Below are positions 29,174-46,273 of a stretch of DNA of 64,000 nucleotides, piece after piece. The notes under the pieces are model-generated. The model saw only the letters and a program-made list of their open reading frames with translations, did not search any database and was not told where the DNA came from. This DNA comes from Escherichia phage AV124. The stretch lies in sequence record OR352954; one strand, given 5' to 3'. The position numbers were made by a program, and so were the translations under genes. Position 1 is the stretch's first letter, and every line of letters begins with the position of its first letter.

Positions 29174-30934
29174 TTACGGTCTTTGATAGACAGCTACATC
29201 ATAGACAGTCCCTCTTCCACAATAGGTTACTTGTAGAATTGTAACTGAATTTGCAGTAGTGCTGATCGTACCACCATTTATGATTTTATAAGATGCATCA
29301 AGGGTGACGGCATGTCCGCCAGTTGCATCCTGGAACAGATAGATCGTGGCAGTAAAAGCACTACCAAGATTTGCCCAAGGCCCGATAGTTAAAGTATTTG
29401 TCACATCTACGTTGTAGATGTTATTCATCTTCGTCAGATCAGAGCCTGTCCCTCCTGGTGTCCAAGTTGTTCCTGCGGAAGGTGTGGTAACAGAACCAGG
29501 GGTTGTTCCTACAAAATTCGCAGTGACCTTAGGAGCCGTTGCTTCACCCGTAATAACGAGGGATGCACCTTTTAGAGACCCGTATGCCTCTATTGTGGTG
29601 GTTGCCAGAACGGAGTTAGGGTTAATGTCCTTCCCGTTGACATCAACAGAAACGCCCGTTAGAGTACCAAGTACGTTAAGATTGTTTACAGTTGTTGTGC
29701 CTGTCCCACCATTATTAAGGTTGGCGTTTCCAGTAACTGTAAGGTTGGTGCTTACCGTAGCTGCCCCAGTAACTGCAAGCAGGCCCGTGATGGAGAGGTT
29801 TCCTGCAACAGAGCTAGCACTACCGGCTGTAAATCCCCCAGTTAATGTGCTGTTTCCATCGACTGTTAATGAACTTACTACGCCTAAATTCTGAATAGAG
29901 GCACTTCCGAGAGTTGTTACACCGTTTACAGTTAGATCAGACCCTATCTCGGCTGTTGTCGTTGTGGCAATAGAGTTGGGGAGAATGTCTAAGCCATCAA
30001 CACCGACATTGACACCGGACAACGAACCCGTTACTCTTACGTTTTCAAGTTCTGTCGTTCCGGTTACCTTAAGTCTTGGTTCCGTAGAGGCCTTGGAAGA
30101 GTTCCCTCGGATATACACATAGTCGAAGGTGTTATTACCGACACCAGTTAATGACATTGTGGTGTTATCTGCACTAGCTGTCCCATTCACAATAACTGCG
30201 GAAGTCAGATTATTGGTTTGAACAGAGTTCGGAGATATGATAGTCTTCAGATAGTTAGAGGCAGCGGTGTAGTCAAAAGAAAGAGTGGCAGTTTGTCCAG
30301 ATAACGAAATTTTCTGGAATTTACCAAGCACACCAGAGGCATCAAGCGTCCCACCAAATTGGGATGTCCCAGAAACAACCAATGTGTTAAGGGTTGAAGC
30401 ACCAACCACCGTAAGAGCAGCATAACTTGGAGAAGACCCAGCAAGAGAATTGATCGCTGCTGCGACAGCCAAGTTGACAAATGCAGTTGTCGCTATTGCA
30501 CCACTATTACTTCCCTGAGCAGGGGTAGGCGCTGTCGGAGAACCGACAAATGCAGGGGTATTAAGAGGTGCAAATTTTTCAGAAACTACAACGGAGTCAT
30601 TATAAACTTTCCAAGCGGTGCTTGTGGACGGATCGGCAGGTAAAGTGATAGGTGTAGATGGTGACGCTCCTGGGGCATACCACCAGAAAGTCCCTGCTGA
30701 ATTGGTGAAGGAATACAGTTGATTAAAAACTGTCGCCTGTGTACCAGCCACCCAAGGTTGTGGTGGTGTTTTAAAATACACATTGTCAAGAAGCGCTTTA
30801 CGTAATGTTGGAATCGTGCTACCATCTTCTACAATAACAGTGTCGATCGCCGATCCGTTGACCACCTTATGGAGACGCTCAGAATCCTCGATAACCTGAT
30901 CCACAGCCTGTTCAAATTGTGTTGTATCAGCCAT
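29174..30934 (-). CDS. tail fibre protein (long, repeat-rich)
   Basis: 586 aa, Thr/Ser/Gly/Asn/Val-rich beta-repeat composition typical of fibre shafts; last gene of late block. Confidence 0.55.
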   Translation of the reverse strand: MADTTQFEQAVDQVIEDSERLHKVVNGSAIDTVIVEDGSTIPTLRKALLDNVYFKTPPQPWVAGTQATVFNQLYSFTNSAGTFWWYAPGASPSTPITLPADPSTSTAWKVYNDSVVVSEKFAPLNTPAFVGSPTAPTPAQGSNSGAIATTAFVNLAVAAAINSLAGSSPSYAALTVVGASTLNTLVVSGTSQFGGTLDASGVLGKFQKISLSGQTATLSFDYTAASNYLKTIISPNSVQTNNLTSAVIVNGTASADNTTMSLTGVGNNTFDYVYIRGNSSKASTEPRLKVTGTTELENVRVTGSLSGVNVGVDGLDILPNSIATTTTAEIGSDLTVNGVTTLGSASIQNLGVVSSLTVDGNSTLTGGFTAGSASSVAGNLSITGLLAVTGAATVSTNLTVTGNANLNNGGTGTTTVNNLNVLGTLTGVSVDVNGKDINPNSVLATTTIEAYGSLKGASLVITGEATAPKVTANFVGTTPGSVTTPSAGTTWTPGGTGSDLTKMNNIYNVDVTNTLTIGPWANLGSAFTATIYLFQDATGGHAVTLDASYKIINGGTISTTANSVTILQVTYCGRGTVYDVAVYQRP

Positions 30935-32028: not shown

Positions 32029-32508
32029 TTAGGCTGTCTGCGGAAGCTCTGGTTGAGGGTCTCCCTTGGTCCATCCTCTGAGATCGATGATATATTTCTT
32101 CATTGTCTCAACCTTATCTTCTTCACCCAGTGCAGCGTAAGTTGATAGCAGTATCGCGGCCCTTTGGAAAAGTCCTTGTTTCTTATTTTCAAAGATTCTG
32201 TCTTCCATCCACTCCACTTTTTCGAACTCTTCACCGTTAAAGATATGAGTTCTATTAGAGAAATCACTTGGGAGAGAATCTACAAGACGAAAGTAACAAT
32301 CTTCCGGGAAGAATTTGGTCGGGTCCGTATCTGCCATATAGACCTGACCGTTAGAATCGTATTGAATATATAGGCCTTTTTGTTTTTCTTTTAATTGAGA
32401 TACAAAATCGTACCAATCTTGACCGTTCTCATCTTTTAGATATAAGGCGCCAGGAACCGCAACCTTTTCTGGAGAATATCTAACCCATTTCATATCAGTT
32501 ATTTTCAT
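32029..32508 (-). CDS. putative tail fibre assembly protein
   Basis: Start overlaps stop of upstream fibre gene (TAATG); position and size typical of Tfa chaperones. Confidence 0.35.
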   Translation of the reverse strand: MKITDMKWVRYSPEKVAVPGALYLKDENGQDWYDFVSQLKEKQKGLYIQYDSNGQVYMADTDPTKFFPEDCYFRLVDSLPSDFSNRTHIFNGEEFEKVEWMEDRIFENKKQGLFQRAAILLSTYAALGEEDKVETMKKYIIDLRGWTKGDPQPELPQTA

Positions 32509-33554
32509 TAAAGCCCCACTGTATACCAAATGCCATCAAGAGCTTTCTGTAAAAATCTGAACCTTATCTCATCAATGTCGTGAAGATAAACATCTCCGCT
32601 GGCGTTCGCATCAATCAGGCCAGTCAATACAGAGCCGTCAGGTCCACGCGCGAAACGTCCACCTGGACCATAATTCTCAAAATCAACGTTGACTTTGTTT
32701 TGTTCTCCACTCCAACGAATGTCAGAAACCCCAATACTGATATGAAGATCACCATTGGCATTTGCAGCGGTACTATTTACTGCACGAACAATGGATCTTC
32801 CACCAACGGTTGCGTTGTTGGAGTTTACTACGAGGTTTTGTAACGTAGCTGTACCACTAACACCAAGACTGGTTGTCTGAATATTACCACCATTATTAAT
32901 GGTTGTCGATGCTAAGGTTCCTGTAGTCATCGTACCTGTGGCTGTAATATTACCCTGGACCCTTAACAGCGCAGTGTTTGTACCAGTTGCATTAAGCTCC
33001 ATCATGTTGAATGGTGAAACTGTAGCAGAGTTGTTTACAGGAACAAAGCGGAACCTCATGATATCAACATTAGATTGTCCAGCTACACCCGGATTATCAC
33101 CAATTACAAAATCCAAATAGGTTTGGTCAGTACCTAAGGTGGTTGTGATGTGTGCAGTATCGCTTGCATCAGATGGGAAGGTAATACGCGGAACAGTCAA
33201 AGGACCTGTCATCGTGTCACCTTCAACATTCACATAACGATTATCCCCTTCAGCTTTACTATAGACCTCTAGATTAGTACGAGCTGTGGCCTTATTCTCC
33301 ACATCACTTAAGTTCTGGTCTTTTCTTAAATAATCGGCTGCCATACCAGGAATTTGCTCAGTGGAAATGTAAGACATCCACCAAGTCATCATGTTAAGAA
33401 CATAGTTAAGTTCTTCACAAGCGGGTTTCTCACCCAAATCCCAACCCTTATCCCAAAGATCAGCGATAGGGGAGATTTTATTTGCAGTATGAGCATTAGG
33501 TAACACGACGTCACTTTCAGCCCATATCTGAAGAGGAATAGTAGGAATTGCCAT
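32508..33554 (-). CDS. tail fibre protein
   Basis: 'GDNRYVNVEGDTMTGPL' motif typical of phage tail fibres; repetitive Thr/Asn/Gly shaft. Confidence 0.6.
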   Translation of the reverse strand: MAIPTIPLQIWAESDVVLPNAHTANKISPIADLWDKGWDLGEKPACEELNYVLNMMTWWMSYISTEQIPGMAADYLRKDQNLSDVENKATARTNLEVYSKAEGDNRYVNVEGDTMTGPLTVPRITFPSDASDTAHITTTLGTDQTYLDFVIGDNPGVAGQSNVDIMRFRFVPVNNSATVSPFNMMELNATGTNTALLRVQGNITATGTMTTGTLASTTINNGGNIQTTSLGVSGTATLQNLVVNSNNATVGGRSIVRAVNSTAANANGDLHISIGVSDIRWSGEQNKVNVDFENYGPGGRFARGPDGSVLTGLIDANASGDVYLHDIDEIRFRFLQKALDGIWYTVGL

Positions 33555-34201: not shown

Positions 34202-35695
34202 TTAGATTATCTGTAGGAATGTAATATTATCAGTGTCGATAGAGAATACCTCATCCATCCCTGCAACAACATCAGAGGTTGTATAGGAAGTATCAGGATC
34301 TCCGACGTTCTTGACATCCACATAAAGTTGTGTAAATCTACCAGCAGAGATAGAAGAACCTACAGCAGATACAAGCTGGATGTTGTATAAAGTGTCAGCA
34401 ATGTTAAGCGGGTCAATAACACCTTTGAGGGCGGACTTTATAGTATCCTGTTCAGTGGTTGAGAGGACCTTTCCTTTATAACGGACACGGATAGCCAAAT
34501 CCCGTGCCTGTGCTTTACTGTGATAAATTCGTTCTGTCTGATTATCCTCAGTAGGGACATCATAAAAAACATTACCATAGGTAGCGTTAGACAAAGCAAT
34601 TGAATTATAAAGTGCCTTGCTAATATCTTCAGTAGACCCACCATACACCACGGTCTCAAACTTGTACGGTGGTATTCCATTCTGGTCTGTAGTCCCTGTG
34701 TTATTTGAGAAGATTTTAACCTTACTTACACCACTCACCCCAAGGACAGCACTCACCACCGCAGGTCTGGTCGCAGCCGCACTCGATGCTGTTGTGTTAG
34801 AAGCCCTGACCTTGTATTCGGTGTCGGTCTCAACATCTGTACCCTCTGTGAAGGCATTCATGTTGTTAAGGCTGATGAACCCACCCGGTGTTGGGGAAAT
34901 CGAGGTTACGGTGTTTTTCTCTCTCGACAGTTCACCTGCCTCAACAGCAACAACATCCATTGTGATTGTACGTTCACCAACAATTGGTGATGTCCTGAAA
35001 TCAACACGGCTATTAAGGCCGATCATTTCAAGATTAGTATCATACCCAATGTACAATGCCCCGTTTTGAGAGTCAATGATGATCCTATCATTATTAAGCT
35101 CGGAGGTATTGTTGACAATAAAGCTCTTGACAGAGGCCATGAAAGTGTTAAGCTGAGAGCTATTAGGTGTTTTATTGGTCAACTGAAGAGTTGTTTGACT
35201 TGTGGTTCCGGTGTTTTGATTATTGATCTGGAAACTATAAGTACCTACAACCCAGTCCTTATTGAGAATTTTTTGTGCCAGTATGTTACCTGCAAGGGTG
35301 GTGTCGTCATTTAATACAAATGTACCACTATCAAGTGTGTATGTGTTTTGGGCATATACCATGTTGTAAGGGACAGTATTATTAACTGTCATCTCAACAG
35401 ATCCTGAACTTTTTGTCTTCCCTCGACGATAAACACCTCTTCGGGAAAGCAGCTCATCAAGATAAATCCCCTCAGCCCCTGCAAGGGTCTGAGCCGAATA
35501 AACTGACGCTGCCAGAAGGATAATCTGATATTCCCTTTCGTTGAAAATTGTTGTCAACTTGTCAGCAATTGTGTTAGTTTGCGTGTTGAAATTTTCACCA
35601 AAAGTTCTAATGAGGGTCTGTTTTGTGTCTGCGATAAGGTCATCAAGAGAGGGGATAGTGAAACCGTAATCGCTCAATCCATATTGAGTTGCCAA
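34202..35695 (-). CDS. baseplate wedge protein, gpJ/gp6-like
   Basis: 497 aa; position and size consistent with Baseplate_J family. Confidence 0.45.
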   Translation of the reverse strand: MATQYGLSDYGFTIPSLDDLIADTKQTLIRTFGENFNTQTNTIADKLTTIFNEREYQIILLAASVYSAQTLAGAEGIYLDELLSRRGVYRRGKTKSSGSVEMTVNNTVPYNMVYAQNTYTLDSGTFVLNDDTTLAGNILAQKILNKDWVVGTYSFQINNQNTGTTSQTTLQLTNKTPNSSQLNTFMASVKSFIVNNTSELNNDRIIIDSQNGALYIGYDTNLEMIGLNSRVDFRTSPIVGERTITMDVVAVEAGELSREKNTVTSISPTPGGFISLNNMNAFTEGTDVETDTEYKVRASNTTASSAAATRPAVVSAVLGVSGVSKVKIFSNNTGTTDQNGIPPYKFETVVYGGSTEDISKALYNSIALSNATYGNVFYDVPTEDNQTERIYHSKAQARDLAIRVRYKGKVLSTTEQDTIKSALKGVIDPLNIADTLYNIQLVSAVGSSISAGRFTQLYVDVKNVGDPDTSYTTSDVVAGMDEVFSIDTDNITFLQII

Positions 35696-35787: not shown

Positions 35788-35807
35788 AACCACCCCGAAG
35801 GGTGGTT
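35788..35807 (-). terminator. intrinsic terminator (minus strand)
   Basis: AACCACCC-CGAA-GGGTGGTT hairpin overlapping stop of upstream gene, followed on minus strand by TTTTTT. Confidence 0.5.
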
Positions 35808-36639
35808 AGTTGCCGGACAAAGAGTCTTCCAAGGCTGAAAGGCGCTTGTCAAGATCCTCCTGCACCGCTATTGTTGCTCTAAGTATCCAGAATAAAAGCT
35901 CTTCTTTTCTGAAAGCGTACTCCTCGCCTGCTGGGTTATCACCATTAGCTTCCCACTTATCATAGCAAAATGCTGAGTATTTCGTCCAATCAAGACCATA
36001 CTTAAGCATAATCTTGATAGCATCTTGTACAGTAGGTCCCGAATGGAGTCTAGCTAAACCTTTTTCAGAAGAGTATTTTGCCAACCATTGCCAGACAGAG
36101 TCTAGTTTTCCAATCTCATAGAACGCTTTTACTTCTGCGGTTGAAATTTGGCGAAGGTTGGTTTTCTTTTTCTTATTGGAAGTAGAAATCACACTATTCA
36201 CAGCATAAACTTGATTCCAACGAAGAGCTGTAGTACCGTTTGAAATAAAGTTATCCCGCTTAGGGTAAAATGCTGCTAATGATGTAGATATCTGGACACC
36301 ATAAGATCTTTGCACTGGGCTTATAGATATTGTATCTGCATATGTCCCAACTTCGTTTCCAGAGGTGGCAAAATAATACCCATTAGATAGATTTTGCCAC
36401 TTGTTTGAAAGACTGTCCAGAACTTGCTGGACAGTTGATCCTGAATGTGTCCCGACCAAAGAGGCCCCTGAGACATCCATGATATCACCTTTCTTTAAGA
36501 TTCCAATATCAGAAATGAACTTACTAATAGTGGTTTTTTCTGTATCAACAGATGACTGGATGATTAGCTCATCAGTATCTGATACCAACACCTTATCAGA
36601 AAGATTTCTTATCTTAATGACTGGCAAATCAATTGACAT
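35806..36639 (-). CDS. tail fibre with shared N-terminal anchor motif and C-terminal intramolecular-chaperone-like domain
   Basis: ATG 36639 (MSIDLPVIKIRNL...) after SD; N-terminus paralogous to four other tail proteins; C-terminus resembles S74-type chaperone domains. Confidence 0.45.
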   Translation of the reverse strand: MSIDLPVIKIRNLSDKVLVSDTDELIIQSSVDTEKTTISKFISDIGILKKGDIMDVSGASLVGTHSGSTVQQVLDSLSNKWQNLSNGYYFATSGNEVGTYADTISISPVQRSYGVQISTSLAAFYPKRDNFISNGTTALRWNQVYAVNSVISTSNKKKKTNLRQISTAEVKAFYEIGKLDSVWQWLAKYSSEKGLARLHSGPTVQDAIKIMLKYGLDWTKYSAFCYDKWEANGDNPAGEEYAFRKEELLFWILRATIAVQEDLDKRLSALEDSLSGN

Positions 36640-36700
36640 ATTAACCTCGTTTTTAAGTCCCTCGTGACACGAAACGGATTTCTTTAAAGCCCCGTAACCG

Positions 36701-37501
36701 TTAGGCTGCAATCTTGCCAATCCGCTCCATCAGATATGCAAAAATCACATCCTGGGCACTAGTCCCGTAGGAATACAGACCAGGTATCACTATTGCATCT
36801 GACAGTACAGACGTCAGAGGTGAAACAGACCCATCTCCTGCTCCGCCCAAATTCATTTTTTGAGACGTGGTGTATTCAGGTATCGTATAGCCAGTCACCT
36901 GTCTGGTTGTTACCGCAGACTGGTCAGACCTTTGGTATGCAATAGCGTAAGCCCCTGTATTTTTGTTAGAACACATAACCACGGCGCAAAACAGACCAGC
37001 CCCCATATTTGATGGAGTGAAAGGGACATCTGGCTGTGTGCCACCATTAAAAAACACAGGGAAACTACCAGATGAAGTTGTGCGAATACCAACCCCATGA
37101 GGTGTTGTTTCTTGGGTTGCGATGGCTATCCTATCTGTCGGGGCTGATGATAATGCACCTGAAGGCAACTGGTAGATGAAGGCGAACGTATTGATGTTTG
37201 CGTCCATAACCACTTCGGTATCACCAGCCATACCGGATGCACCGGAGAAATTAATCCCCTGCAAAACAGGCCCATTCAGCTTTGTGGATGGCTCGAGGCC
37301 TGACTGGGAATTGAATTTTCCACCATCTACCCGGTTTGCGAGTGCGGAAACTTTTTGCCCGATCCCTAGTTTGATAAAATCAACCGTTGCAGGCGACCAT
37401 ATAGTGGGGTTTAAATTTGCCAGTGCTATTTCCGCAGCTGTCAAAGAATAAACGGGAAGCAATGGGTTATTTAACCCTGTGTCAGTGTAAAGAAGGCGCA
37501 T
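36701..37501 (-). CDS. tail-associated protein (putative fibre/adhesin)
   Basis: 266 aa Gly/Ser/Thr-rich; within tailspike cluster. Confidence 0.35.
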   Translation of the reverse strand: MRLLYTDTGLNNPLLPVYSLTAAEIALANLNPTIWSPATVDFIKLGIGQKVSALANRVDGGKFNSQSGLEPSTKLNGPVLQGINFSGASGMAGDTEVVMDANINTFAFIYQLPSGALSSAPTDRIAIATQETTPHGVGIRTTSSGSFPVFFNGGTQPDVPFTPSNMGAGLFCAVVMCSNKNTGAYAIAYQRSDQSAVTTRQVTGYTIPEYTTSQKMNLGGAGDGSVSPLTSVLSDAIVIPGLYSYGTSAQDVIFAYLMERIGKIAA

Positions 37502-37513
37502 TTTTTTTTATCC

Positions 37514-40036
37514 TCAGAAAACGTTGATTCGAAAAGCCGGTAACCAGTCGTAGAGGGTTACAGATGTATCGTATACCCACGCGATTCCGGCAGAAGATCT
37601 TACACACCCTCGTGCGCCCAAGGTCTTACCAGAAGGTTTGACAGTCGCACCGCTTTGAAGAGGATTTTCTACTGTCGCATAGGAAACCCGTCCAAAACGG
37701 CCAGTAGGAGCAGATGCTAGGTTAATCAGCACGCCCTTTCCGTCCGAGCTGATCGCTATGCTAGAAATGGCAGGGGGTGACGCCGATTCATCTGTGTAGT
37801 TAAAACCGTAATTTGCCAGGCCATCAATACTAATATTGGTCGTGTCTATCACCAGGTTGGTATACGAAGGGATGTTTATTTGTATTTGCGTGGGGGAGTT
37901 CCATACAAAACCATTCGGAACCATACCATACCAGCCGCTCGTAAACCACTCCTGGATAATTGCTCTTGCCACAGCCGCTCCACGTTTATTTTGTGCAGCA
38001 CAGGTGAGGTGCAAACCGTCCGTAATAAAATCGTACTGATACAAGGTATTTACGCAACGGAACTGCTCACGGCCATGTAGGTTGTTTACTGACATCCTTA
38101 CACGCTGGCCTGTAAACGCACCATGCCCGTCATTGACATACCCCAGCTGGGTGATGGCGATGATCGGCGGTTCGTTTTGACCAGTCCTTGCCATGATGTC
38201 ACTGATGACTTGCCTCTGGTACTGCTTCATCCTAGACTCATACATCCCTTCCCGCAACCCAGACCAGTCCTCGTCTGACTCTCCTTGCATCCAGTCAACG
38301 CAGAGAACAATCGGCAGCCAGCCACGCGCTTTACAGGCCGTCACGCAGTCTTCGATTGAATCCAGCATGTATTGGTACACGGCATTACCGCGTTTTTGGT
38401 ACTCGTATGCCTGCCCGGATTGGGCACACACGATTGATAGTGTGCGCGGCATGATTCCGGTAGCTGCAGCCATATCGCGAATGAAGGTGTTTGCCAAGCC
38501 AGATGCTGCAGTCTCCTTATCAGTGCCGCTTACTGCCTCAACCAGTGGCACCAGAGTAGTGCTGCGTGCCCCCGTTCTCCTGACCCCGCCAGATAGCATA
38601 AACGCGTTATCAGGATAAACTGGCGTCGACGCGATAATGGTTTGATCCGCATCTGGGCAATAGCCGCGTGCATTAGACTGCCCGGCAGTTACAAAAATGA
38701 AGCATACCGGAACATCTTCTGAATACGGGTAAGCCGTAGACCCTGACAAATGGAGTCCATACTCAGGGAGGATAGTCATATCATCGCCGCCACCCCCTCC
38801 ACTCTCCTGGTTAACAAGAACCAAGCCGCTATCGGAGTAGATCCAGTGATGGCCGCCAACCGTGTAAGCCTCAACGATCTGGTTTGTCGTGGCGTCAACG
38901 ATCATGCGCCACACCTTTTCACCGCCGATAAATTGCGGCACTGCCCCCTCAGTTCCGAGCGCATATAACTCAGCCTCTTGCGGCGTGAGCACTTCATAAT
39001 ATTTTCCGTCAGGACCAATTTGTATTAACCGCCCAGCGGCGTTTAAAAAAGGAGCCACTCTTTTTGTCTCCGGGTCATAACCCGCCAGGGCCACACTGTT
39101 TGATGATATCTGGTATGCGTAGTCGTCACGAGCTATCAACCTATCTGTCGGATTAAGAACCCCTGAATTATTCACATACTCATTTGCTAGGGTTGAGTCT
39201 GAAGAATTTCTAACCCAACAATGTGCCCCATTTGGGATATTACCTGCCGCAACCTCATTCTGGGCTACCGCCAGCGATTCATATCCCCGGATGGTATTTA
39301 TAATGGCCCCTGTTCCTGGAACAGCCGCGACTTCTTGAGCAACCCCTGCATTATTCTTGTACACTTTGAACGCTACAGAGCTACCACTTCCCTGAGGCAC
39401 TTGGAAATATTGTCCATCCGTAGTTGCAGCAAGACCTTCACTAACAGATGCGTATAAGTTTCCCAGCTCAGAGGCCTGCAATGCATATGCTTGTGCCTCA
39501 TCTCTCGCATCTTCTGCTTGGTCTTTTGCCTCAACTGCTTCGTTTTTGATTTCTGTTACTTCATCGAGCAGACTCAAACCACCAACAGTTACCCATGCAG
39601 ATGCTGAAACACCACCTGTTGTAGACGGGGTGGATTTTTCGGGTACTGTCTTGGGGAATGTCCCTCCCCATGTGTAACATTGCGCTCCTGCAATATGCCA
39701 AATAGCATCGTTGGCATAGGTTAATGTTGCACCATCTTCGAAAGAACCTTCTACCAAAGTTAGCCCAAGATCATGAAGTGCTCTTCTCCATAATTCTCTC
39801 TCATTTGCACGGGCAGTGTCAAGACTTTGTTGGACATGTGTCCCATCAGAGGTCCCTATAAGGGAGGCACCGCCATCCGCCGCCAAATCCCCTTTGTTAG
39901 CCAAGTCTAAGTCGGAGATAACCTGGGAGACAGTGGCCTTTTTGGTCTTATCTGGTTGTTCTACAACAAGGTAGTCGTCTCCGACCACTTGGGTTGCGGA
40001 GGGTAACTCCGCAATTTTAATTGTATCAAAGGCCAT
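37514..40036 (-). CDS. tailspike with SGNH/sialate-O-acetylesterase-like domain
   Basis: ATG 40036 (MAFDTIKIAELP...) after GGAGGG SD; anchor motif 'IAELPSATQVVGDDYLVVEQPDKTKKATVSQV'; 'FVTAGQSNARG' and 'DGLHLT' esterase blocks. Confidence 0.55.
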   Translation of the reverse strand: MAFDTIKIAELPSATQVVGDDYLVVEQPDKTKKATVSQVISDLDLANKGDLAADGGASLIGTSDGTHVQQSLDTARANERELWRRALHDLGLTLVEGSFEDGATLTYANDAIWHIAGAQCYTWGGTFPKTVPEKSTPSTTGGVSASAWVTVGGLSLLDEVTEIKNEAVEAKDQAEDARDEAQAYALQASELGNLYASVSEGLAATTDGQYFQVPQGSGSSVAFKVYKNNAGVAQEVAAVPGTGAIINTIRGYESLAVAQNEVAAGNIPNGAHCWVRNSSDSTLANEYVNNSGVLNPTDRLIARDDYAYQISSNSVALAGYDPETKRVAPFLNAAGRLIQIGPDGKYYEVLTPQEAELYALGTEGAVPQFIGGEKVWRMIVDATTNQIVEAYTVGGHHWIYSDSGLVLVNQESGGGGGDDMTILPEYGLHLSGSTAYPYSEDVPVCFIFVTAGQSNARGYCPDADQTIIASTPVYPDNAFMLSGGVRRTGARSTTLVPLVEAVSGTDKETAASGLANTFIRDMAAATGIMPRTLSIVCAQSGQAYEYQKRGNAVYQYMLDSIEDCVTACKARGWLPIVLCVDWMQGESDEDWSGLREGMYESRMKQYQRQVISDIMARTGQNEPPIIAITQLGYVNDGHGAFTGQRVRMSVNNLHGREQFRCVNTLYQYDFITDGLHLTCAAQNKRGAAVARAIIQEWFTSGWYGMVPNGFVWNSPTQIQINIPSYTNLVIDTTNISIDGLANYGFNYTDESASPPAISSIAISSDGKGVLINLASAPTGRFGRVSYATVENPLQSGATVKPSGKTLGARGCVRSSAGIAWVYDTSVTLYDWLPAFRINVF

Positions 40037-40234
40037 TTTTTGCCCTCCAAGAAGTTTATTTAGAATAGTCAATGATGACTGTCATATAATTGTTAAAGCT
40101 TTACATGGCAGGGGTGGGCTATCATACCCGCAACGGTAGGCTGTTCTTCCCTAACCGTTGCAGGCCGTAGTTAGTGTGAATTGTTGCGTATGTCATTATT
40201 GTGGTCTATTTATACAAACAATAATATTCATAAA

Positions 40235-41914
40235 TTACATAGATGGAAGTAGTGAAACGTTCACCGATCTAGCCAAACCATCTACGCTGGTAAGCAATAC
40301 TGTAATTTCCCCATCTGTTGCTGATATAGACAAAGCAACCTTGACCCCTGTGCCAGAAAGGCCAATCCTTCCAGAGTTTGCGACAATTCCGCTGGTGATG
40401 ATATCAAGATAGAAGTTGTTTTCGTGCCTTACACCTATAGGTATTTTTATATAATCACTCTGCGCAGTACTACCAATCCTACACTCAATCAATATGGCTC
40501 TGGTGATATACGTATCATATATGCCTTGCAAAATATTAGTTTTAGTGAATGATAATGTTGCGCCAGCAGATGCGGCAAGGATTCCTGAAGAAAGTGGCCC
40601 TATTATACGTCTACCATTGACTACCTGATTCATCCCCACGTTTACATCGTCATTAATCCCAAGACATCCAGTAATAGACTTCCTTACCGTCGAGGCTTTT
40701 TGATTAATGGCAGATGTCACAAATCCAGTCATATCCGAGCCTGAAATAAGAAGTGTTCCACCTCCAGCCCCAAGTATTGACACGTTGAAAGATGGCGATG
40801 TTGTCCCGCCGTCTCCGCTATCGTTTGCACCCTTCCCGGTTCTTACGTTTCCAATTTGTAACTTGCCATTATCAATGATGATGAAGTTAGCAGAGTAATC
40901 ACTTCCCTCTGGCTGGCTTGCGCCGCATCGCCTTACGTCAGCGCCGGTTACAATCCATTGTGCATCTTTGCCAGCCACTACACCGCCACGCCCAGCGCGG
41001 TCGCACAATTCGCCAATAATTGTATTTTCTACGGACTCATAAGCATAATAGTTGTCTGTGGCATTCCATTCGTTTCTGCATGAATCAAAGTTGTTGTTAT
41101 TTGATCCACCAGTCAAGGCAACGCCGCGATTGTTTGCGTTAATCACGCAAGCAACAAGGTTGGAATCAATCAGGTTTCTCACACCGTCACCGCACCCAGA
41201 CACAGAACAACGGGTGGCAAACAACGTCCCGGTGTAACCAGACCAACCAAGACCAACCGTAAAGTTGTATATGCCGCAACCTTCAAATCGCGTGCCGTTA
41301 AATTGCTCTGAAGAATTGGTGGAATAGAGCAGATAAGTAGTTCTATCTCTACCGTTAAAAACAATATCCCTGAAAACGTGCCTTTTGTTGGAGTAAAACG
41401 GGAACGTTTTTCCTGTAGCCACTTCAATCACAACGCCGCAATCGTCAAATGCACTGTCTGTCAATGGGTTGTATGGCCTAAAGCAACCCTCACCAATCAT
41501 AAAGAAACCAGAAGGTAGTGTGGCAGGGGAGTTCCCAAAGATGTAGCGACCTTTTACCCTAGGCAGGCATAGTGTCATTACTCCGTCAGAAATAGCATCC
41601 TTTAACGCATAGTCACAATCAACCTTAGCCCCGGTTGTTGAAAGAAGGGTTGCACGGTCAGTATCGTTCAAATAGCTAAAAATTGACTTTTGCGTTATTT
41701 CATCAAGTGGCGCTTTGCCTTTGTATACTTTACCAGAACCATCCGGCTGCGCCAAAGCCGCCAGCGTTGACTGCCCAACAACATCTCCAAGATAATTTAA
41801 AACTTGAAATAAAGTTGCCTTCTTTGTATCGTCGGGTTGATCGACCACGATCAGATCGTCTTCTGTTAGAGTGTCCGCGCTTGGCAACTCTGAAATTTTA
41901 ACACTCTGTAGCAT
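40235..41914 (-). CDS. tailspike, right-handed beta-helix type (putative depolymerase)
   Basis: ATG 41914 (MLQSVKISELPSAD...); anchor motif; Gly/Asn/Ser/Thr-rich beta-helix-like body. Confidence 0.5.
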   Translation of the reverse strand: MLQSVKISELPSADTLTEDDLIVVDQPDDTKKATLFQVLNYLGDVVGQSTLAALAQPDGSGKVYKGKAPLDEITQKSIFSYLNDTDRATLLSTTGAKVDCDYALKDAISDGVMTLCLPRVKGRYIFGNSPATLPSGFFMIGEGCFRPYNPLTDSAFDDCGVVIEVATGKTFPFYSNKRHVFRDIVFNGRDRTTYLLYSTNSSEQFNGTRFEGCGIYNFTVGLGWSGYTGTLFATRCSVSGCGDGVRNLIDSNLVACVINANNRGVALTGGSNNNNFDSCRNEWNATDNYYAYESVENTIIGELCDRAGRGGVVAGKDAQWIVTGADVRRCGASQPEGSDYSANFIIIDNGKLQIGNVRTGKGANDSGDGGTTSPSFNVSILGAGGGTLLISGSDMTGFVTSAINQKASTVRKSITGCLGINDDVNVGMNQVVNGRRIIGPLSSGILAASAGATLSFTKTNILQGIYDTYITRAILIECRIGSTAQSDYIKIPIGVRHENNFYLDIITSGIVANSGRIGLSGTGVKVALSISATDGEITVLLTSVDGLARSVNVSLLPSM

Positions 41915-41976
41915 CTTATATTTACCCCTCTTCTTAACATTAGTACATTTTACCACAAAGTTCAAAGATTTAAAAG

Positions 41977-41996
41977 AAGGGACCTTACGGTCCCTT
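41977..41996 (-). terminator. intrinsic terminator (minus strand)
   Basis: AAGGGACC-TTAC-GGTCCCTT hairpin after stop of 547-aa gene, T-rich tract follows on minus strand. Confidence 0.5.
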
Positions 41997-42001
41997 GCTA
42001 A

Positions 42002-43645
42002 TCATGTTCCAAATCCAACAATTCTATATTTCAAGGATGAGTTGTTGGTTGTGATGGAGACAACAACACCACCATCGGTTGTCCCATCTACTGTGGACAA
42101 AGTAAAGAGTCTTGAACCACCTGTCGTAGAACCAGTTCCTGGTGTCTGGTCATGATTACCGATAACCGTATAAGTGACCACCCCTTCCCGGTTAGTAGCA
42201 ATCAGTTCAACAGCCTGCGCCCAACTTGTTTGAGCAGAGGTCCAAACATCGATAAAAATTTTCTTGGTTGTCCGGTTCGGTATGGTGATAAGTTGAGTAT
42301 CTCCGGCGGCATAAAGCCCTTTAGTCCTAGTGTGATATTCGATCCATTGTAGATTATAACCCGGACTGGAAGTTGTCGGTTCTTGAGAGGTGTAGGACCA
42401 TCTTGTTACTTCCCCGACTTGGCTAACATGCTCAATTTTTCTTGAAAACTTATCTCTCAGCACGAAACTATAAGACCTCACACCATTGCTTTGGAGGTCT
42501 ACGTCAGCCTCTTTAGGATTTGGGTAGCTCCCTGTACCACCTACTTCGAACAGATCTTTTTTGCCAGCATCTGGCGCAATCCATCCATTTTTATCCATGT
42601 TGGCAAAGAATTCCTCAAATGCAAGCCAATACGATTCTTGATGCCCCAGAAGGTTGGGGTGAACAGTTTGCCCACTGTTAAACAATGAGCTAATGCCATA
42701 CTTGGCAAGGGCATCGAACCAATATTTTTCGACATCGATAAGAACACAACCCATTTCTACAGCAATCTGGCGAATAGCATCGTTTCCTCGCAAGAAACGA
42801 TGGCCCACCGTAATGGTCACACCATTCCATACTAAATCTACATTTGACTCGGCAGCGGAAGGGATGATACTATCATCAGAAACGGGGGCCGGGGAAGGGG
42901 AAGGCCATACTTGGGCGACACCCGGAGGCATACTCCAAGAATAAATGGGGATATTAGGATGTGGGGTGGTAGTAAGAATAACGTCACCACCTGCATCCCT
43001 AACATTTCTGATTGCAGCTCTTAATCTTTGCTTAAACCCATTCTCGTTGAAAGTCTGACCTGCGTTGTAGTTTGCTGTGGGAAAATCATTCATCCCATAC
43101 ACGAATAAGGCAATATCTGGATATGTCCCAGTAGCAACAACAGCAGGCCATTGGTCAACCAAAAAATTATTGATCGTTGACCCGTTTACAGACCTATTTA
43201 CAAAGGATAGTGGATATATCCCACCTTTATTAATGGATTTGTTAAAGAATTCAAAGAATTTAGCCACAGGAGCTTGGGTGGCAGGATCTGGTAATGTTGC
43301 ACCATTCCCCACAGAAGACCCAAATCCGTACAGTAGAAACTGCGTCTGCCCAGAGGCACCATGACGATAGGCGGTTAGTTTGTTAATAAGTTGGGGAAAG
43401 AGTGCCTGTGAATTCCCCGAAGCAGCCCTAATGGATTCCTCAACTGTTTTACCTGTGGCTGTCCCTATAAGGCTCGCACCATCATCATCAGCAAACATAG
43501 TTTCTCTGGATATATCCATATCAGAAACTAGTTGACTTAAGGTTGTCTTTTTCGTAGCATCTACTTGCTCCACAACAAGCAGGTCAGTCCCTGCAAGTGT
43601 AGAGGATGGAGGAAGTTCCGAGATCCTTGTGGTTGGTATTGACAT
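42002..43645 (-). CDS. tailspike with SGNH/GDSL-hydrolase-like domain
   Basis: Anchor motif 'ISELPPSSTLAGTDLLVVEQVDATKKTTLSQL'; 'YGFGSSVGNG' (block I) and 'YGMNDF' (block III). Confidence 0.5.
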   Translation of the reverse strand: MSIPTTRISELPPSSTLAGTDLLVVEQVDATKKTTLSQLVSDMDISRETMFADDDGASLIGTATGKTVEESIRAASGNSQALFPQLINKLTAYRHGASGQTQFLLYGFGSSVGNGATLPDPATQAPVAKFFEFFNKSINKGGIYPLSFVNRSVNGSTINNFLVDQWPAVVATGTYPDIALFVYGMNDFPTANYNAGQTFNENGFKQRLRAAIRNVRDAGGDVILTTTPHPNIPIYSWSMPPGVAQVWPSPSPAPVSDDSIIPSAAESNVDLVWNGVTITVGHRFLRGNDAIRQIAVEMGCVLIDVEKYWFDALAKYGISSLFNSGQTVHPNLLGHQESYWLAFEEFFANMDKNGWIAPDAGKKDLFEVGGTGSYPNPKEADVDLQSNGVRSYSFVLRDKFSRKIEHVSQVGEVTRWSYTSQEPTTSSPGYNLQWIEYHTRTKGLYAAGDTQLITIPNRTTKKIFIDVWTSAQTSWAQAVELIATNREGVVTYTVIGNHDQTPGTGSTTGGSRLFTLSTVDGTTDGGVVVSITTNNSSLKYRIVGFGT

Positions 43646-43657
43646 TTTTTCTCCCGA

Positions 43658-44272
43658 TTATTTAATAGTATTAATTGTGTTGTCTTCTGGCGTAACAATA
43701 GGCGTACTTTTACGAGTTAGTAATGATCCGGGGGTCACCGGATTTTCCATATCGCCTGCCCAAGTATTCCACCAAGTTGCATCACCAGTCTTAGGTAATC
43801 TAAAGTTGATAAGGTAGTATAACTTATTTCCCCAAGGTATCCAACCCTCATCCCCGCAAAGAGTTGTTGTTTCAGGCACCGGCGTCGGGTAGTAGTAATC
43901 ATCACCGCCTACGAAGGCTATTCTTACAATCTCCTGCTCTTTTGTTAAGACTTCAAAGAAGGCAGAATAGCTTCTTGTTGTATGGTCCATTACAGACTGG
44001 AAATCTGCAATTTCTAAAACATCTGGTTCAAGACGGGTTATTTCCTTTATCTTATTATCAAGGACCGTCTTCATAACCTTTTTGCTTATGTAGGTTCTAT
44101 AGGGAAATCCAAAGGTCTCATCAAAATACCAATCCCCTGCCCACACATTAAACCTTAGCCATAAGCGCTGTCGTAGACTTACTTGATTGGAGTCTATCAA
44201 CTGAAGACCTGTAGAAACATCAAGGTCTCCTGTTACCGGGTCCATTAAGAAGTCAGAATAAAGTGTCGCCAT
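43658..44272 (-). CDS. baseplate protein (XkdS/gp25-like position)
   Basis: 204 aa; position within baseplate/fibre cluster. Confidence 0.3.
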   Translation of the reverse strand: MATLYSDFLMDPVTGDLDVSTGLQLIDSNQVSLRQRLWLRFNVWAGDWYFDETFGFPYRTYISKKVMKTVLDNKIKEITRLEPDVLEIADFQSVMDHTTRSYSAFFEVLTKEQEIVRIAFVGGDDYYYPTPVPETTTLCGDEGWIPWGNKLYYLINFRLPKTGDATWWNTWAGDMENPVTPGSLLTRKSTPIVTPEDNTINTIK

Positions 44273-44283
44273 TGCTCCTCACC

Positions 44284-45519
44284 TTAAAGTTGGTCTGGGA
44301 ATGCGTTATTCTCAGAAATGATATTAGAAATTCCATCTACAATTGCGGTAGACGCCCTTTTAACGCCTATTCCAAGACCATTTTTTACAGTTACCGATCC
44401 TGTTACTGTTCCCTTGGCATTATCCAGCCAAGCACAACCCGCCTGATTGGCAATGGTCCCGGCGGTATTACCAAGACGCATATTCCCATCCATTACAACA
44501 GGTCCGTACTCAGTATCTCCATGAATATCACATGTTCCTGACTCTATAACAACCATACCGCCAGACACATTATGGTTAAAAGTCCCACCATTGAGTATCA
44601 TTGTGGTTGTTTCATGATTAGATGCCCCTTGAGCAGATTGTCCTGGAGCATCTCCATTATAGCTACCATCACAACCATTGAGTATCATGAGGCCAGCGCC
44701 TCCAGTTGGGGCATGTTGTCCAAAACCATCGTTACTTATACGATAAGCCTTTACATTGGTACATTCTATTCTTTCATTTCTTCCTGTACCACCAACGCCT
44801 CCATTAGCACAGTATTCAACCACAGAGTCATACACCGTTAGAAAACCTGTACCAGCAGGTTGAGTTGATAAGCCGCAGGATATCCCATTAATCATACAAT
44901 ATCTTGAGACTACATCCCTTACCGTAAGTAACCCGAAACCAACCGTACCGACACCGAAGTTTCTTCTTGAAACCTCTATTTGATGGGTATTCGGGTCTGA
45001 ATCATCAGGAAGCCTGACGTATATTGTCGAACCACTATAGCCGTATTGTCCTAAACCTGGAGTTGTTGGGGTGGTAGTATTCTGGACAAGCTTAAGATAA
45101 AAATCATCTTTGTCGGCTATTGTCTCTGTCATCGTGGTAACAACCACTTGCATTACAGATGTGTAATTTATAACCTTAGAATAAATGTTTCCAGAGAGTA
45201 CCCATCCTGAAGTATGCATTTCAGAACCATATATGTGCCAAGGTTCATTGTCAATACCCTCCAAGAAAACATTCATGGAAGTATCAAAAATAACTTCCTG
45301 GCGTAAAGGGTTTGTTTCTGGTGCAGCAATTTTTATGACATAGTCAGGAAGCCCAGCGCAGAGACCTAGTGCGAGGGACAAGGAGTTGACAGGATTGTTT
45401 AATGATCCTGTTCCTGCTGCGGAACCTCTCACAGTATCAACATAAAGAGGGTTTGGTGGGTATGTCCTAAGGACCCCCGGCGTGGGAACTCCTGTTCTCC
45501 AAGTTTGGGTAACACTCAT
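44284..45519 (-). CDS. beta-helix tail protein (tailspike-like, no anchor motif)
   Basis: Gly/Thr/Asn-rich repeats 'NGG.GG.G' typical of pectin-lyase fold. Confidence 0.4.
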   Translation of the reverse strand: MSVTQTWRTGVPTPGVLRTYPPNPLYVDTVRGSAAGTGSLNNPVNSLSLALGLCAGLPDYVIKIAAPETNPLRQEVIFDTSMNVFLEGIDNEPWHIYGSEMHTSGWVLSGNIYSKVINYTSVMQVVVTTMTETIADKDDFYLKLVQNTTTPTTPGLGQYGYSGSTIYVRLPDDSDPNTHQIEVSRRNFGVGTVGFGLLTVRDVVSRYCMINGISCGLSTQPAGTGFLTVYDSVVEYCANGGVGGTGRNERIECTNVKAYRISNDGFGQHAPTGGAGLMILNGCDGSYNGDAPGQSAQGASNHETTTMILNGGTFNHNVSGGMVVIESGTCDIHGDTEYGPVVMDGNMRLGNTAGTIANQAGCAWLDNAKGTVTGSVTVKNGLGIGVKRASTAIVDGISNIISENNAFPDQL

Positions 45520-45520
45520 C

Positions 45521-46273
45521 TTATGCCACCTTTGTCAATCTTACTGCCAGAAGAACAATAGCTGTTGCAACGGTATCGTTAGCTGATGTACCATTTCTAC
45601 CGACACGGACAGTGGTATGTCTTGTTGGGTCAACAGTTAGATCTTGCAATATCTGTGATTCAACCGCAATATACGGTGTTGCATTTGCCACGGGAATTAC
45701 TGCTCCGCCTGCTGGCGCTTGGTTGAATGATTCCCCTGCTGACCAACTGTTGATCAAACCTGAAAAGCTTACTGAACCAGAATTAGATACCATATTTGAC
45801 CAGATCAAGGAGATTCTCATCTTTGTCCAATGGGACGGGAGGTCTATCATCTTTGATACGGAAGCATCTACACCGTGATTAAACTGCCAGCCCCCAAGAC
45901 GTTGTGCGACAGCTCCGTAAGTTGCTGTTCCAATAACGAGATCGAAATCTTTCGCAGGAATGACTATGGAAGTTACAGCATTTTCAGGATCTGCGGTAAT
46001 TGCGTCAACGGATGTTTGAAGTTCTGTAAATTGTTGTTTTGTTGGTAGCTGGCTAGCTGTCTGTTCTGCGCTATCTGCTGCTTGGACGGCTTCATCTTTG
46101 GCAGCAACCGCCTCATCCTTGATGTCAGTAATGTCTTGAATAATTCCAATATCATTCATTGCCTTATCAAATGTAGCTTTCTTAGTTCCACCTGCCTGCT
46201 CAAATATGATAAGGTCGTTACCAGAAACGCTATCTGCATCAGGAAGCTCTGGAATACGGATTGTAAGACTCAT
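45521..46273 (-). CDS. short tail fibre with shared N-terminal anchor motif
   Basis: 'IPELPDADSVSGNDLIIFEQAGGTKKATF' anchor; 'EAVAAKDEAVQAAD' helical segment. Confidence 0.45.
   Translation of the reverse strand: MSLTIRIPELPDADSVSGNDLIIFEQAGGTKKATFDKAMNDIGIIQDITDIKDEAVAAKDEAVQAADSAEQTASQLPTKQQFTELQTSVDAITADPENAVTSIVIPAKDFDLVIGTATYGAVAQRLGGWQFNHGVDASVSKMIDLPSHWTKMRISLIWSNMVSNSGSVSFSGLINSWSAGESFNQAPAGGAVIPVANATPYIAVESQILQDLTVDPTRHTTVRVGRNGTSANDTVATAIVLLAVRLTKVA

Follow-up and report, generated by a model that had tools for sequence, protein, structure and literature searches.

We examined a tail locus of Escherichia phage AV124, at positions 35,788 to 46,273 of a 64,000-nucleotide stretch of DNA (sequence record OR352954; the whole stretch is hereafter "the window"), where five genes share an N-terminal motif of about 45 residues in front of otherwise different proteins. 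AV124 has been described as Mydovirus-like, with an extended-spectrum beta-lactamase E. coli strain as its host at isolation (PMC10844046). A first-pass annotation, made from the sequence alone, had read these genes as a modular receptor-binding array sitting on a common attachment site, with five different C-terminal modules of which two are esterase-like. All tail genes of the window lie on the minus strand, and the five motif-bearing open reading frames (ORFs; sizes in amino acids, aa) are present there as follows:

45521..46273, minus strand: 250-aa short fibre, with the motif at residues 1-42 (about 46148-46273), a coiled coil at about residues 35-94 and a C-terminal beta-sandwich knob
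42002..43645, minus strand: 547-aa tail protein, whose residues 1-90 hold the motif and a GASLIGT segment, ahead of an SGNH/GDSL hydrolase domain
40235..41914, minus strand: 559-aa tailspike, with the motif at residues 1-44, then a beta-helix depolymerase-type body
37514..40036, minus strand: 840-aa tail fibre, with the motif, a GASLIGT segment, a Tail_spike_N domain (95-152), a coiled coil and a predicted SASA-type carbohydrate esterase domain (447-695)
35806..36639, minus strand: 277-aa short tail protein, with a divergent motif (1-47), a GASLVGT segment, a short stem and a C-terminal S74 chaperone domain

Because a Shine-Dalgarno-like purine run lies 5-10 nucleotides (nt) upstream of all five proposed ATG starts, each protein opens with the motif, at residue 1. 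In pairwise BLASTP, the full-length proteins aligned at their N-termini alone (24-52% identity over 39-90 residues), and a profile of about 45 columns searched against the 1053 six-frame ORF fragments of the window returned exactly five matches at 67-84 bits, with the next at 6.6 bits. Leave-one-out profiles recovered each omitted member (63.6, 48.6, 56.0, 49.1 and 27.7 bits; E from 6e-19 to 9e-8) over a background in the window of no more than 7.6 bits, the most divergent copy being that of 35806-36639 (27.7 bits, E 9e-8). The N-terminal similarity is thus significant and confined to five genes, and the statement of the first-pass annotation that further fibre-like genes lack it was borne out, with 29174-30934, 32508-33554, 36701-37501 and 44284-45519 all profile-negative. 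Invariant columns of the motif are M1, I8, L11, D21, T31, K33 and T35. The common N-terminal region is longer in the 277-, 840- and 547-aa proteins, where it runs to residue 75-90 and includes a GASLIGT...TVQ segment; the likeness of the 559-aa and 250-aa proteins to the others is limited to the first ~45 residues. A Pfam search of the isolated N-termini gave no match at E<=10.

Evaluating the motifs as paralogues, we found that they share 24-55% protein identity and 42-56% nucleotide identity, with exact nucleotide runs of no more than 10 nt and a third-position identity at conserved residues of 0.2-0.5. The low nucleotide identity and short exact runs exclude a DNA-level repeat or a recent duplication and, since the amino acids are kept with third positions near saturation, we interpret the motifs as old paralogues held by protein-level selection.

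Nucleotide searches placed the locus among known phages. The 10.5-kb region shows patchy similarity to Klebsiella myophages of the genus Mydovirus (Vequintavirinae), with vB_Kpn_K45PH128C2 (hereafter K45PH128C2) as the top match at 93% identity across 42% of the region, and KB57, KpS8 and Seu621 at ~83% identity across ~20% of it. For the baseplate J-like protein that flanks the array (34202-35695), identity is 99% with the KB57, 60% with rV5-like, 52% with phiTE and 32% with phi92-like homologues, and the window phage belongs to Mydovirus (Vequintavirinae, rV5/phi92 supergroup). Each array position has retained a motif variant of its own from phage to phage, at 68-100% identity (position means 0.80-1.0). 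At the depolymerase position, seven cluster representatives (50% identity) carry unrelated cargo behind a common 'MLQSVKISELPSADTL...' N-terminus, their identity being ~90% over residues 1-45 but no more than 5-8% by residue 75.

These patterns bear on an alternative in which the conserved N-termini persist mainly as recombination homology patches or cassette-exchange hotspots, with no conserved protein function. Such patches would account for an N-terminus that is near-identical across phages within one position while the cargo behind it is replaced, and a 2026 preprint reads short, high-identity N-terminal segments as recombination substrates. Paralogues and genera, however, have kept the amino acids of the motif and not its nucleotides (third positions are near random), and the motif family spans very distant phages. 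We therefore hold this explanation to be very improbable, with the qualification that a recombination role and a protein role are not mutually exclusive.

The position-specific variants also qualify the earlier proposal of one common site. The modular array, the shared module and the exchange of cargo at a junction all stand, but a single literal site does not follow, as the variants seem to fit position-specific docking at least as well; neutral divergence after old duplication could likewise have produced them.

The five C-terminal assignments of the first-pass annotation (SASA, SGNH, beta-helix, short fibre and chaperone-like domain) all hold, including the two esterase-like members. For the 840-aa protein, Pfam identified SASA (PF03629; 51.1 bits, cut-off 24.8) and Tail_spike_N (PF18668; 59.1 bits), and the catalytic motifs of SASA are intact (GQSN at 452, QGESD at 584, DGLH at 673), which predicts a SASA or sialate O-acetylesterase-like carbohydrate esterase; residues 1-311 are 68-75% identical to KB57_052 and to a K45PH128C2 protein. 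The 547-aa protein matched Lipase_GDSL_2 (PF13472; 45.4 bits, cut-off 32.9) and, over residues 54-546, phrog_18703 tail fibre (E 6e-228). Its SGNH blocks I (GFGSS at 107), II (NG at 154), III (GMND at 184) and V (HPN at 329) are present, but in alignment to esterase 5jd3 the block V Asp is replaced by Gln (QTVH) with the His kept, so that its predicted hydrolase activity is plausible and not assured.

The remaining three proteins are not predicted esterases. In the 559-aa protein, residues 70-447 match PDB 7xy1 'phage type I tail fiber' (E 4e-37) and the protein matches phrog_6518 (E 4e-127); its gene is the variable depolymerase position of Mydovirus. An AlphaFold 2 (AF2) model of the 250-aa protein (predicted local distance difference test score, pLDDT, 76) has a ~60-residue helix after a hairpin and then a beta-sandwich at 100-250, which in Foldseek matched carbohydrate-binding modules CBM35/36, lectins and phage fibre tips, a predicted tip resembling a lectin/CBM-like knob. 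The 277-aa protein (phrog_23437 tail protein, E 2e-163; 80% identical to KB57_049) carries Peptidase_S74 (PF13884) at residues 154-214 (32.1 bits, cut-off 22), and because this is an intramolecular chaperone its mature product is predicted to be a stub of ~150 aa.

Tracing the cargo to its closest relatives brought in two of the motif-less genes of the locus:

44284..45519, minus strand: motif-less right-handed beta-helix protein of 411 aa, whose gene start overlaps the 250-aa gene's stop
36701..37501, minus strand: motif-less protein of 266 aa, encoded behind the gene of the SASA esterase fibre

Residues 43-250 of the 250-aa protein correspond, at 72% identity, to residues 54-261 of a Klebsiella prophage protein of 261 aa, whose own N-terminus is unrelated to the motif and which occurs in many Klebsiella and E. 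coli prophages. In these prophages, the 261-aa gene closes a tail module of siphovirus type, and after it comes a 411-aa gene whose product is 78% identical, over its full length, to the 411-aa protein of the window; besides prophages of both Klebsiella and E. coli, entries labelled Martelella and Pseudomonas contain homologues of the 250+411 pair. Similarly, residues 245-840 of the 840-aa protein align at 87% identity with residues 65-658 of a fibre of the temperate Klebsiella phage ST16-OXA48phi5.2, and the gene downstream of that 658-aa esterase fibre encodes a protein 90% identical to the 266-aa protein, so that the 266-aa gene sits behind the SASA esterase fibre in both phages. Neither donor locus, prophage or ST16-OXA48phi5.2, contained the motif when both were checked for it. 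The chimeric junctions fall at 42/43, directly after the motif, in the 250-aa protein and at 244/245, after the extended N-terminal module, in the 840-aa protein.

From these alignments, two of the five genes are a resident Mydovirus N-terminus joined to imported prophage-type cargo, each import together with a second, motif-less gene. The donors lack the motif, and the two chimeras are direct evidence for an N-terminus that belongs to the chassis and a remainder that is exchangeable. The 266-aa and 411-aa proteins are accordingly best read, on gene content, as cassette partners of the upstream motif genes and not as independent fibres, and two of the 'fibre-like genes lacking the anchor' are thereby explained, having been imported as cargo partners. 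The partner proteins would bind the anchored ones. The 411-aa protein is modelled with high confidence (AF2 pLDDT 94.7), and Foldseek matched it with probability 1.0 to glycoside hydrolases, polysaccharide lyases and tailspike depolymerases, at template modelling (TM) scores of 0.2-0.56; a reading as a PLL-lectin propeller was rejected, as it came from a weak match to a single blade and is contradicted by the confident beta-helix model. For the 266-aa protein, which may act as a chaperone, as a distal adhesin or as a partner, there was no match in Pfam, PHROG or PDB. Acquisition of the 250+411 cassette may be linked to the isolation of a Klebsiella-type Mydovirus on E. coli.

Anchor and cargo can apparently be either fused or split. 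At the esterase position of KB57 (L002 9865-13142, KB57_051/KB57_052), the N-terminal module is a separate 332-aa ORF that overlaps a 774-aa ORF, annotated with a non-ATG start, by 45 nt; K45PH128C2 and the window each have one undivided ORF there, with different downstream cargo. In rV5 and phi92, the motif proteins gp43 and gp140, respectively, are short, and large fibres without the motif come after them.

We then considered how far the motif extends. A tblastn search with the motif recovered 260 phage records, nearly all Vequintavirinae and Stephanstirmvirinae. Counted by profile, motif genes per tail locus number two in rV5, phi92 and phAPEC8, three in KB57, four in K45PH128C2 and K18PH07C1, and five in the window; the carriers are gp41 and gp43 in rV5, and gp140 and the endosialidase tailspike gp143 in phi92. 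Both rV5 proteins were found in the virion proteome (PMC3606486). At the protein level, a 51-aa profile in a word-indexed search returned seven short fragments that were uninformative, and this was replaced by an exhaustive profile search of 1.84 billion representative proteins, which gave 305 matches at E<=1e-3; among the best 150 of these 305, the motif lies within residues 1-50 in most. Downstream of the motif, the 53 long family members carry 19 different Pfam families overall, with Tail_spike_N in 14 of them and rarer cargo that includes pectate-lyase beta-helix, alginate lyase, GDSL, SASA, S74, collar, PKD and LamG domains. The consensus query also matches Flavobacterium siphophages, Aeromonas phages and jumbo phages.

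Given that receptor-binding proteins (RBPs) are known to attach by their N-termini (PMC6872550, PMC12143355), and given the conservation of the motif and the exchange of cargo behind it, we read the ~45-residue motif as the probable virion-attachment end of each appendage, a reading to which we assign a probability of roughly 70% on comparative sequence evidence. N-terminal anchoring is presented as the rule for RBPs in PMC6872550, PMC12143355 and bioRxiv 10.64898/2026.05.12.724579. In the mechanism that we propose, the five genes would encode tail appendages of a Mydovirus-type myophage, presumably trimeric, in which the module acts as a chassis-specific virion plug consisting of an arm and a beta-hairpin passing into a helix. 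Behind it would stand exchangeable cargo, here two carbohydrate esterases, a beta-helix depolymerase, a lectin-tipped short fibre and a chaperone-matured stub. New specificities would arise when foreign cargo, often from a prophage, recombines behind the resident N-terminus, and sometimes a motif-less second partner gene would be co-imported, its product riding on the anchored protein. We infer physical docking of the module, either on the baseplate or on another fibre, for which the rV5 and phi92 homologues that are virion proteins give indirect support; we further infer that the five proteins would be on the virion together and that each array position would have its own docking site.

An unlikely alternative assigns the motif a different job: it would cap the N-terminus and help the coiled coil or fibre behind it to trimerise or fold, with attachment left to other parts such as the GASLIGT segment or Tail_spike_N. 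The AF2 model lends it something, since the motif of the 250-aa protein is predicted as an N-terminal arm and a beta-hairpin (21-34) that passes directly into the long helix; so do the longer common region, to residue 75-90, in three of the five proteins, the 14 of 53 long family members with Tail_spike_N after the motif, and the tandem copies described below, which suggest an autonomous structural unit. The 250-aa and 559-aa proteins, however, have no conserved N-terminal part for docking besides their first ~45 residues, and since the prophage donor of the 250-aa cargo carries the same coiled coil with a different N-terminus, that coiled coil does not need the motif as a cap.

Whether all five proteins occupy one particle is a separate matter. 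It is conceivable, although we consider it quite improbable, that only a subset is on the virion and that the rest are remnants, soluble enzymes or competitors for one site, yielding heterogeneous particles. Cryo-electron microscopy (cryo-EM) of two Vequintavirinae resolved density for three of nine annotated fibres (PMC12143355), and motif genes vary from two to five on an almost identical baseplate (J-like wedge 99% identical to that of KB57). Yet the five ORFs are intact, with good ribosome-binding sites and with their catalytic motifs present (block V of the SGNH protein having Gln for Asp), and lie within a late tail operon, the position-specific variants have been kept across phages, and both rV5 motif proteins are present in virions. 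Which genes form which fibres is unclear according to the BASEL paper (PMC8594841).

Several observations count against the attachment reading. Other proven phi92 tailspikes (gp141, gp142, gp150 and gp151) do not carry the motif, such that other routes onto the baseplate exist, and the reading leaves unaccounted for how a conserved baseplate takes anywhere from two to five motif proteins. Some metagenomic proteins (P0026, P0028, P0031, P0053, P0056 and P0072) contain the motif in 2-6 tandem copies; one of these, P0031 (L011 7001-8281), is encoded just past the head-tail joining genes of a 41-kb phage contig and may be a neck or collar fibre. Such repeats, among them that of the neck-region gene, are not expected of a simple plug. 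The nine proteins of the locus gave no Gp10 family match at E<=0.01, a sequence-level negative for a T4 gp10-like docking domain. Profile searches of PDB with 5-sequence and 89-sequence profiles found no solved structure that contains the motif, and the confidence of the AF2 prediction across the motif is just 65-80.

Motif columns 11-41 partially and weakly matched residues 28-58 of the crAss001 fibre gp22 (PDB 7qoj; E 0.004), which lie just past the hub-docked segment of that protein (residues 1-26). The N-terminal repeats of T4 gp12 (ECOD 1083.1.1) were set aside as a relative, with an hhalign probability of 19% over 12 aligned columns (IKISSLPQAL), and T4 gp12 gave no match at E<=10 in the PDB profile search with the motif.

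Three further features of the array complete the locus:

43658..44272, minus strand: gp25-like baseplate wedge protein of 204 aa, inside the array (phrog_120 baseplate wedge subunit, E 8e-19)
41977..41996, minus strand: terminator-like hairpin with an 8-bp stem, 5 GC pairs and a T-rich tail (consensus match only), directly 3' of the SGNH gene and mid-array
35788..35807, minus strand: terminator-like hairpin with an 8-bp stem followed by TTTTC (consensus match only), after the last array gene

The two hairpins suggest either two transcription units in the array or a terminator brought in with a cassette. The wedge protein is 95% identical to KB57_054 and 69% to rV5 gp044, and is a baseplate wedge and no RBP. 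Comparing it across phages, we observed a C-terminal tail of ~30-65 residues in the window phage, rV5, phi92 and phAPEC8 that is missing from the 63%-identical phiTE homologue, a comparison of five sequences that is confounded by phylogeny (loci window 43658-44272, L008 13378-13911, L004 29331-30047, L009 11611-12246 and L003 13843-14469). In phiTE, a member of the Vequintavirinae with a solved baseplate, no motif was found in the 73 kb scanned (positions 50,001-119,221 lay outside the scan), and there are zero genes between the gp25-like and J-like wedge genes. As phiTE is without the array, the array would be an accessory insertion into a conserved baseplate operon, and the C-terminal tail of the gp25-like wedge protein is a possible candidate for the docking element. 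The phiTE cryo-EM structure (PMC11972413), in which fibre N-termini are resolved, was considered as a guide to docking and rejected, since phiTE lacks the motif in its scanned part and lacks the array.

A broader proposal can be offered only tentatively, and we think it somewhat unlikely: the motif would be an uncatalogued, widespread and portable docking standard, its position variants working like addresses, so that a single conserved baseplate could bear two to five RBPs, with the gp25-like wedge C-terminal tail as candidate socket and with crAss-like fibres possibly included.

Separately, some of the deposited records consulted need care. In two Mydovirus records, OY978796.1 (L001) and OY978784.1 (L010), the deposited annotation is out of register with the sequence, such that feature names are untrustworthy: exonuclease, ligase or nucleotidyltransferase labels stand on tail-fibre DNA, and the majority of coding sequences carry a pseudogene flag. 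Many 'Campylobacter phage' records (for example C14, A141 and D#; 135-150 kb) match rV5/phi92-type genes at coliphage-level identity and are probably contaminant or mislabelled coliphage genomes.

Among known systems, phi92 reportedly has a multivalent 'Swiss army knife' adsorption apparatus, as Schwarzer et al. are said to have described in 2012. The phi92/rV5-like phages (PMC8594841) resemble the window in a related baseplate core and gene order, in several co-expressed tailspikes and fibres with glycan-degrading domains, and in the same N-terminal motif, on phi92 gp140 and gp143 and on rV5 gp41 and gp43. They have two motif genes, with other spikes using other N-termini, whereas the window has five, including two esterases and two recent chimeras with prophage cargo. 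In the multi-RBP Klebsiella phages of Latka et al. 2019 (PMC6872550) and the K1-5/SP6 adapter, short conserved N-termini on unrelated depolymerases likewise serve attachment, and added RBPs widen host range, as they would in our reading of the window. That scheme, which does not cover Mydovirus (PMC6872550), has a primary RBP with an anchor and a T4 gp10-like branching domain and secondary RBPs with a group-specific peptide; in contrast, the locus proteins gave no sign of a gp10-like domain, and every member in the window, the first included, bears one and the same ~45-aa module.

The 'common N-terminal chassis / plug-and-play' model for Klebsiella phage RBPs (bioRxiv 10.64898/2026.05.12.724579) rests on the same principle as the array, but the sections covered do not define the motif of the window, its copy number, its position variants, the two-gene prophage cassettes or the spread beyond Klebsiella. 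Ackermannviridae CBA120 TSP1-4 and G7C gp63.1/gp66 also place several enzymatic spikes on one baseplate, and the Tail_spike_N domain (PF18668) of 37514-40036 is the N-terminal domain of TSP1/gp66. The CBA120 and G7C complexes interlock through a different N-terminal domain per spike, while the window repeats one motif, and G7C gp63.1 is an esterase RBP with an SGNH fold, as opposed to the SASA fold of the 840-aa esterase.

Earlier publications already describe plug-in cargo on a common N-terminal chassis, Mydovirus RBPs of the SGNH type and an exchange of cargo between phages of different morphotypes. In the literature covered, which did not extend to the original phi92 description, we found no description of the motif (for which there is no Pfam family or structure), of its copy number of 2-5, of the position-specific variants, of the two prophage-derived two-gene cassettes or of a reach beyond the rV5/phi92 group.

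The RBP repertoire sets host range in enterobacteria with diverse capsules and O-antigens, and the two chimeras indicate that virulent myophages receive cargo for it from temperate prophages. The ~45-residue module helps to spot unannotated RBPs, several proteins here being labelled 'hypothetical', and known junction points predict graft sites for foreign depolymerase or esterase cargo on therapeutic phages of the rV5, phi92 and Mydovirus types.

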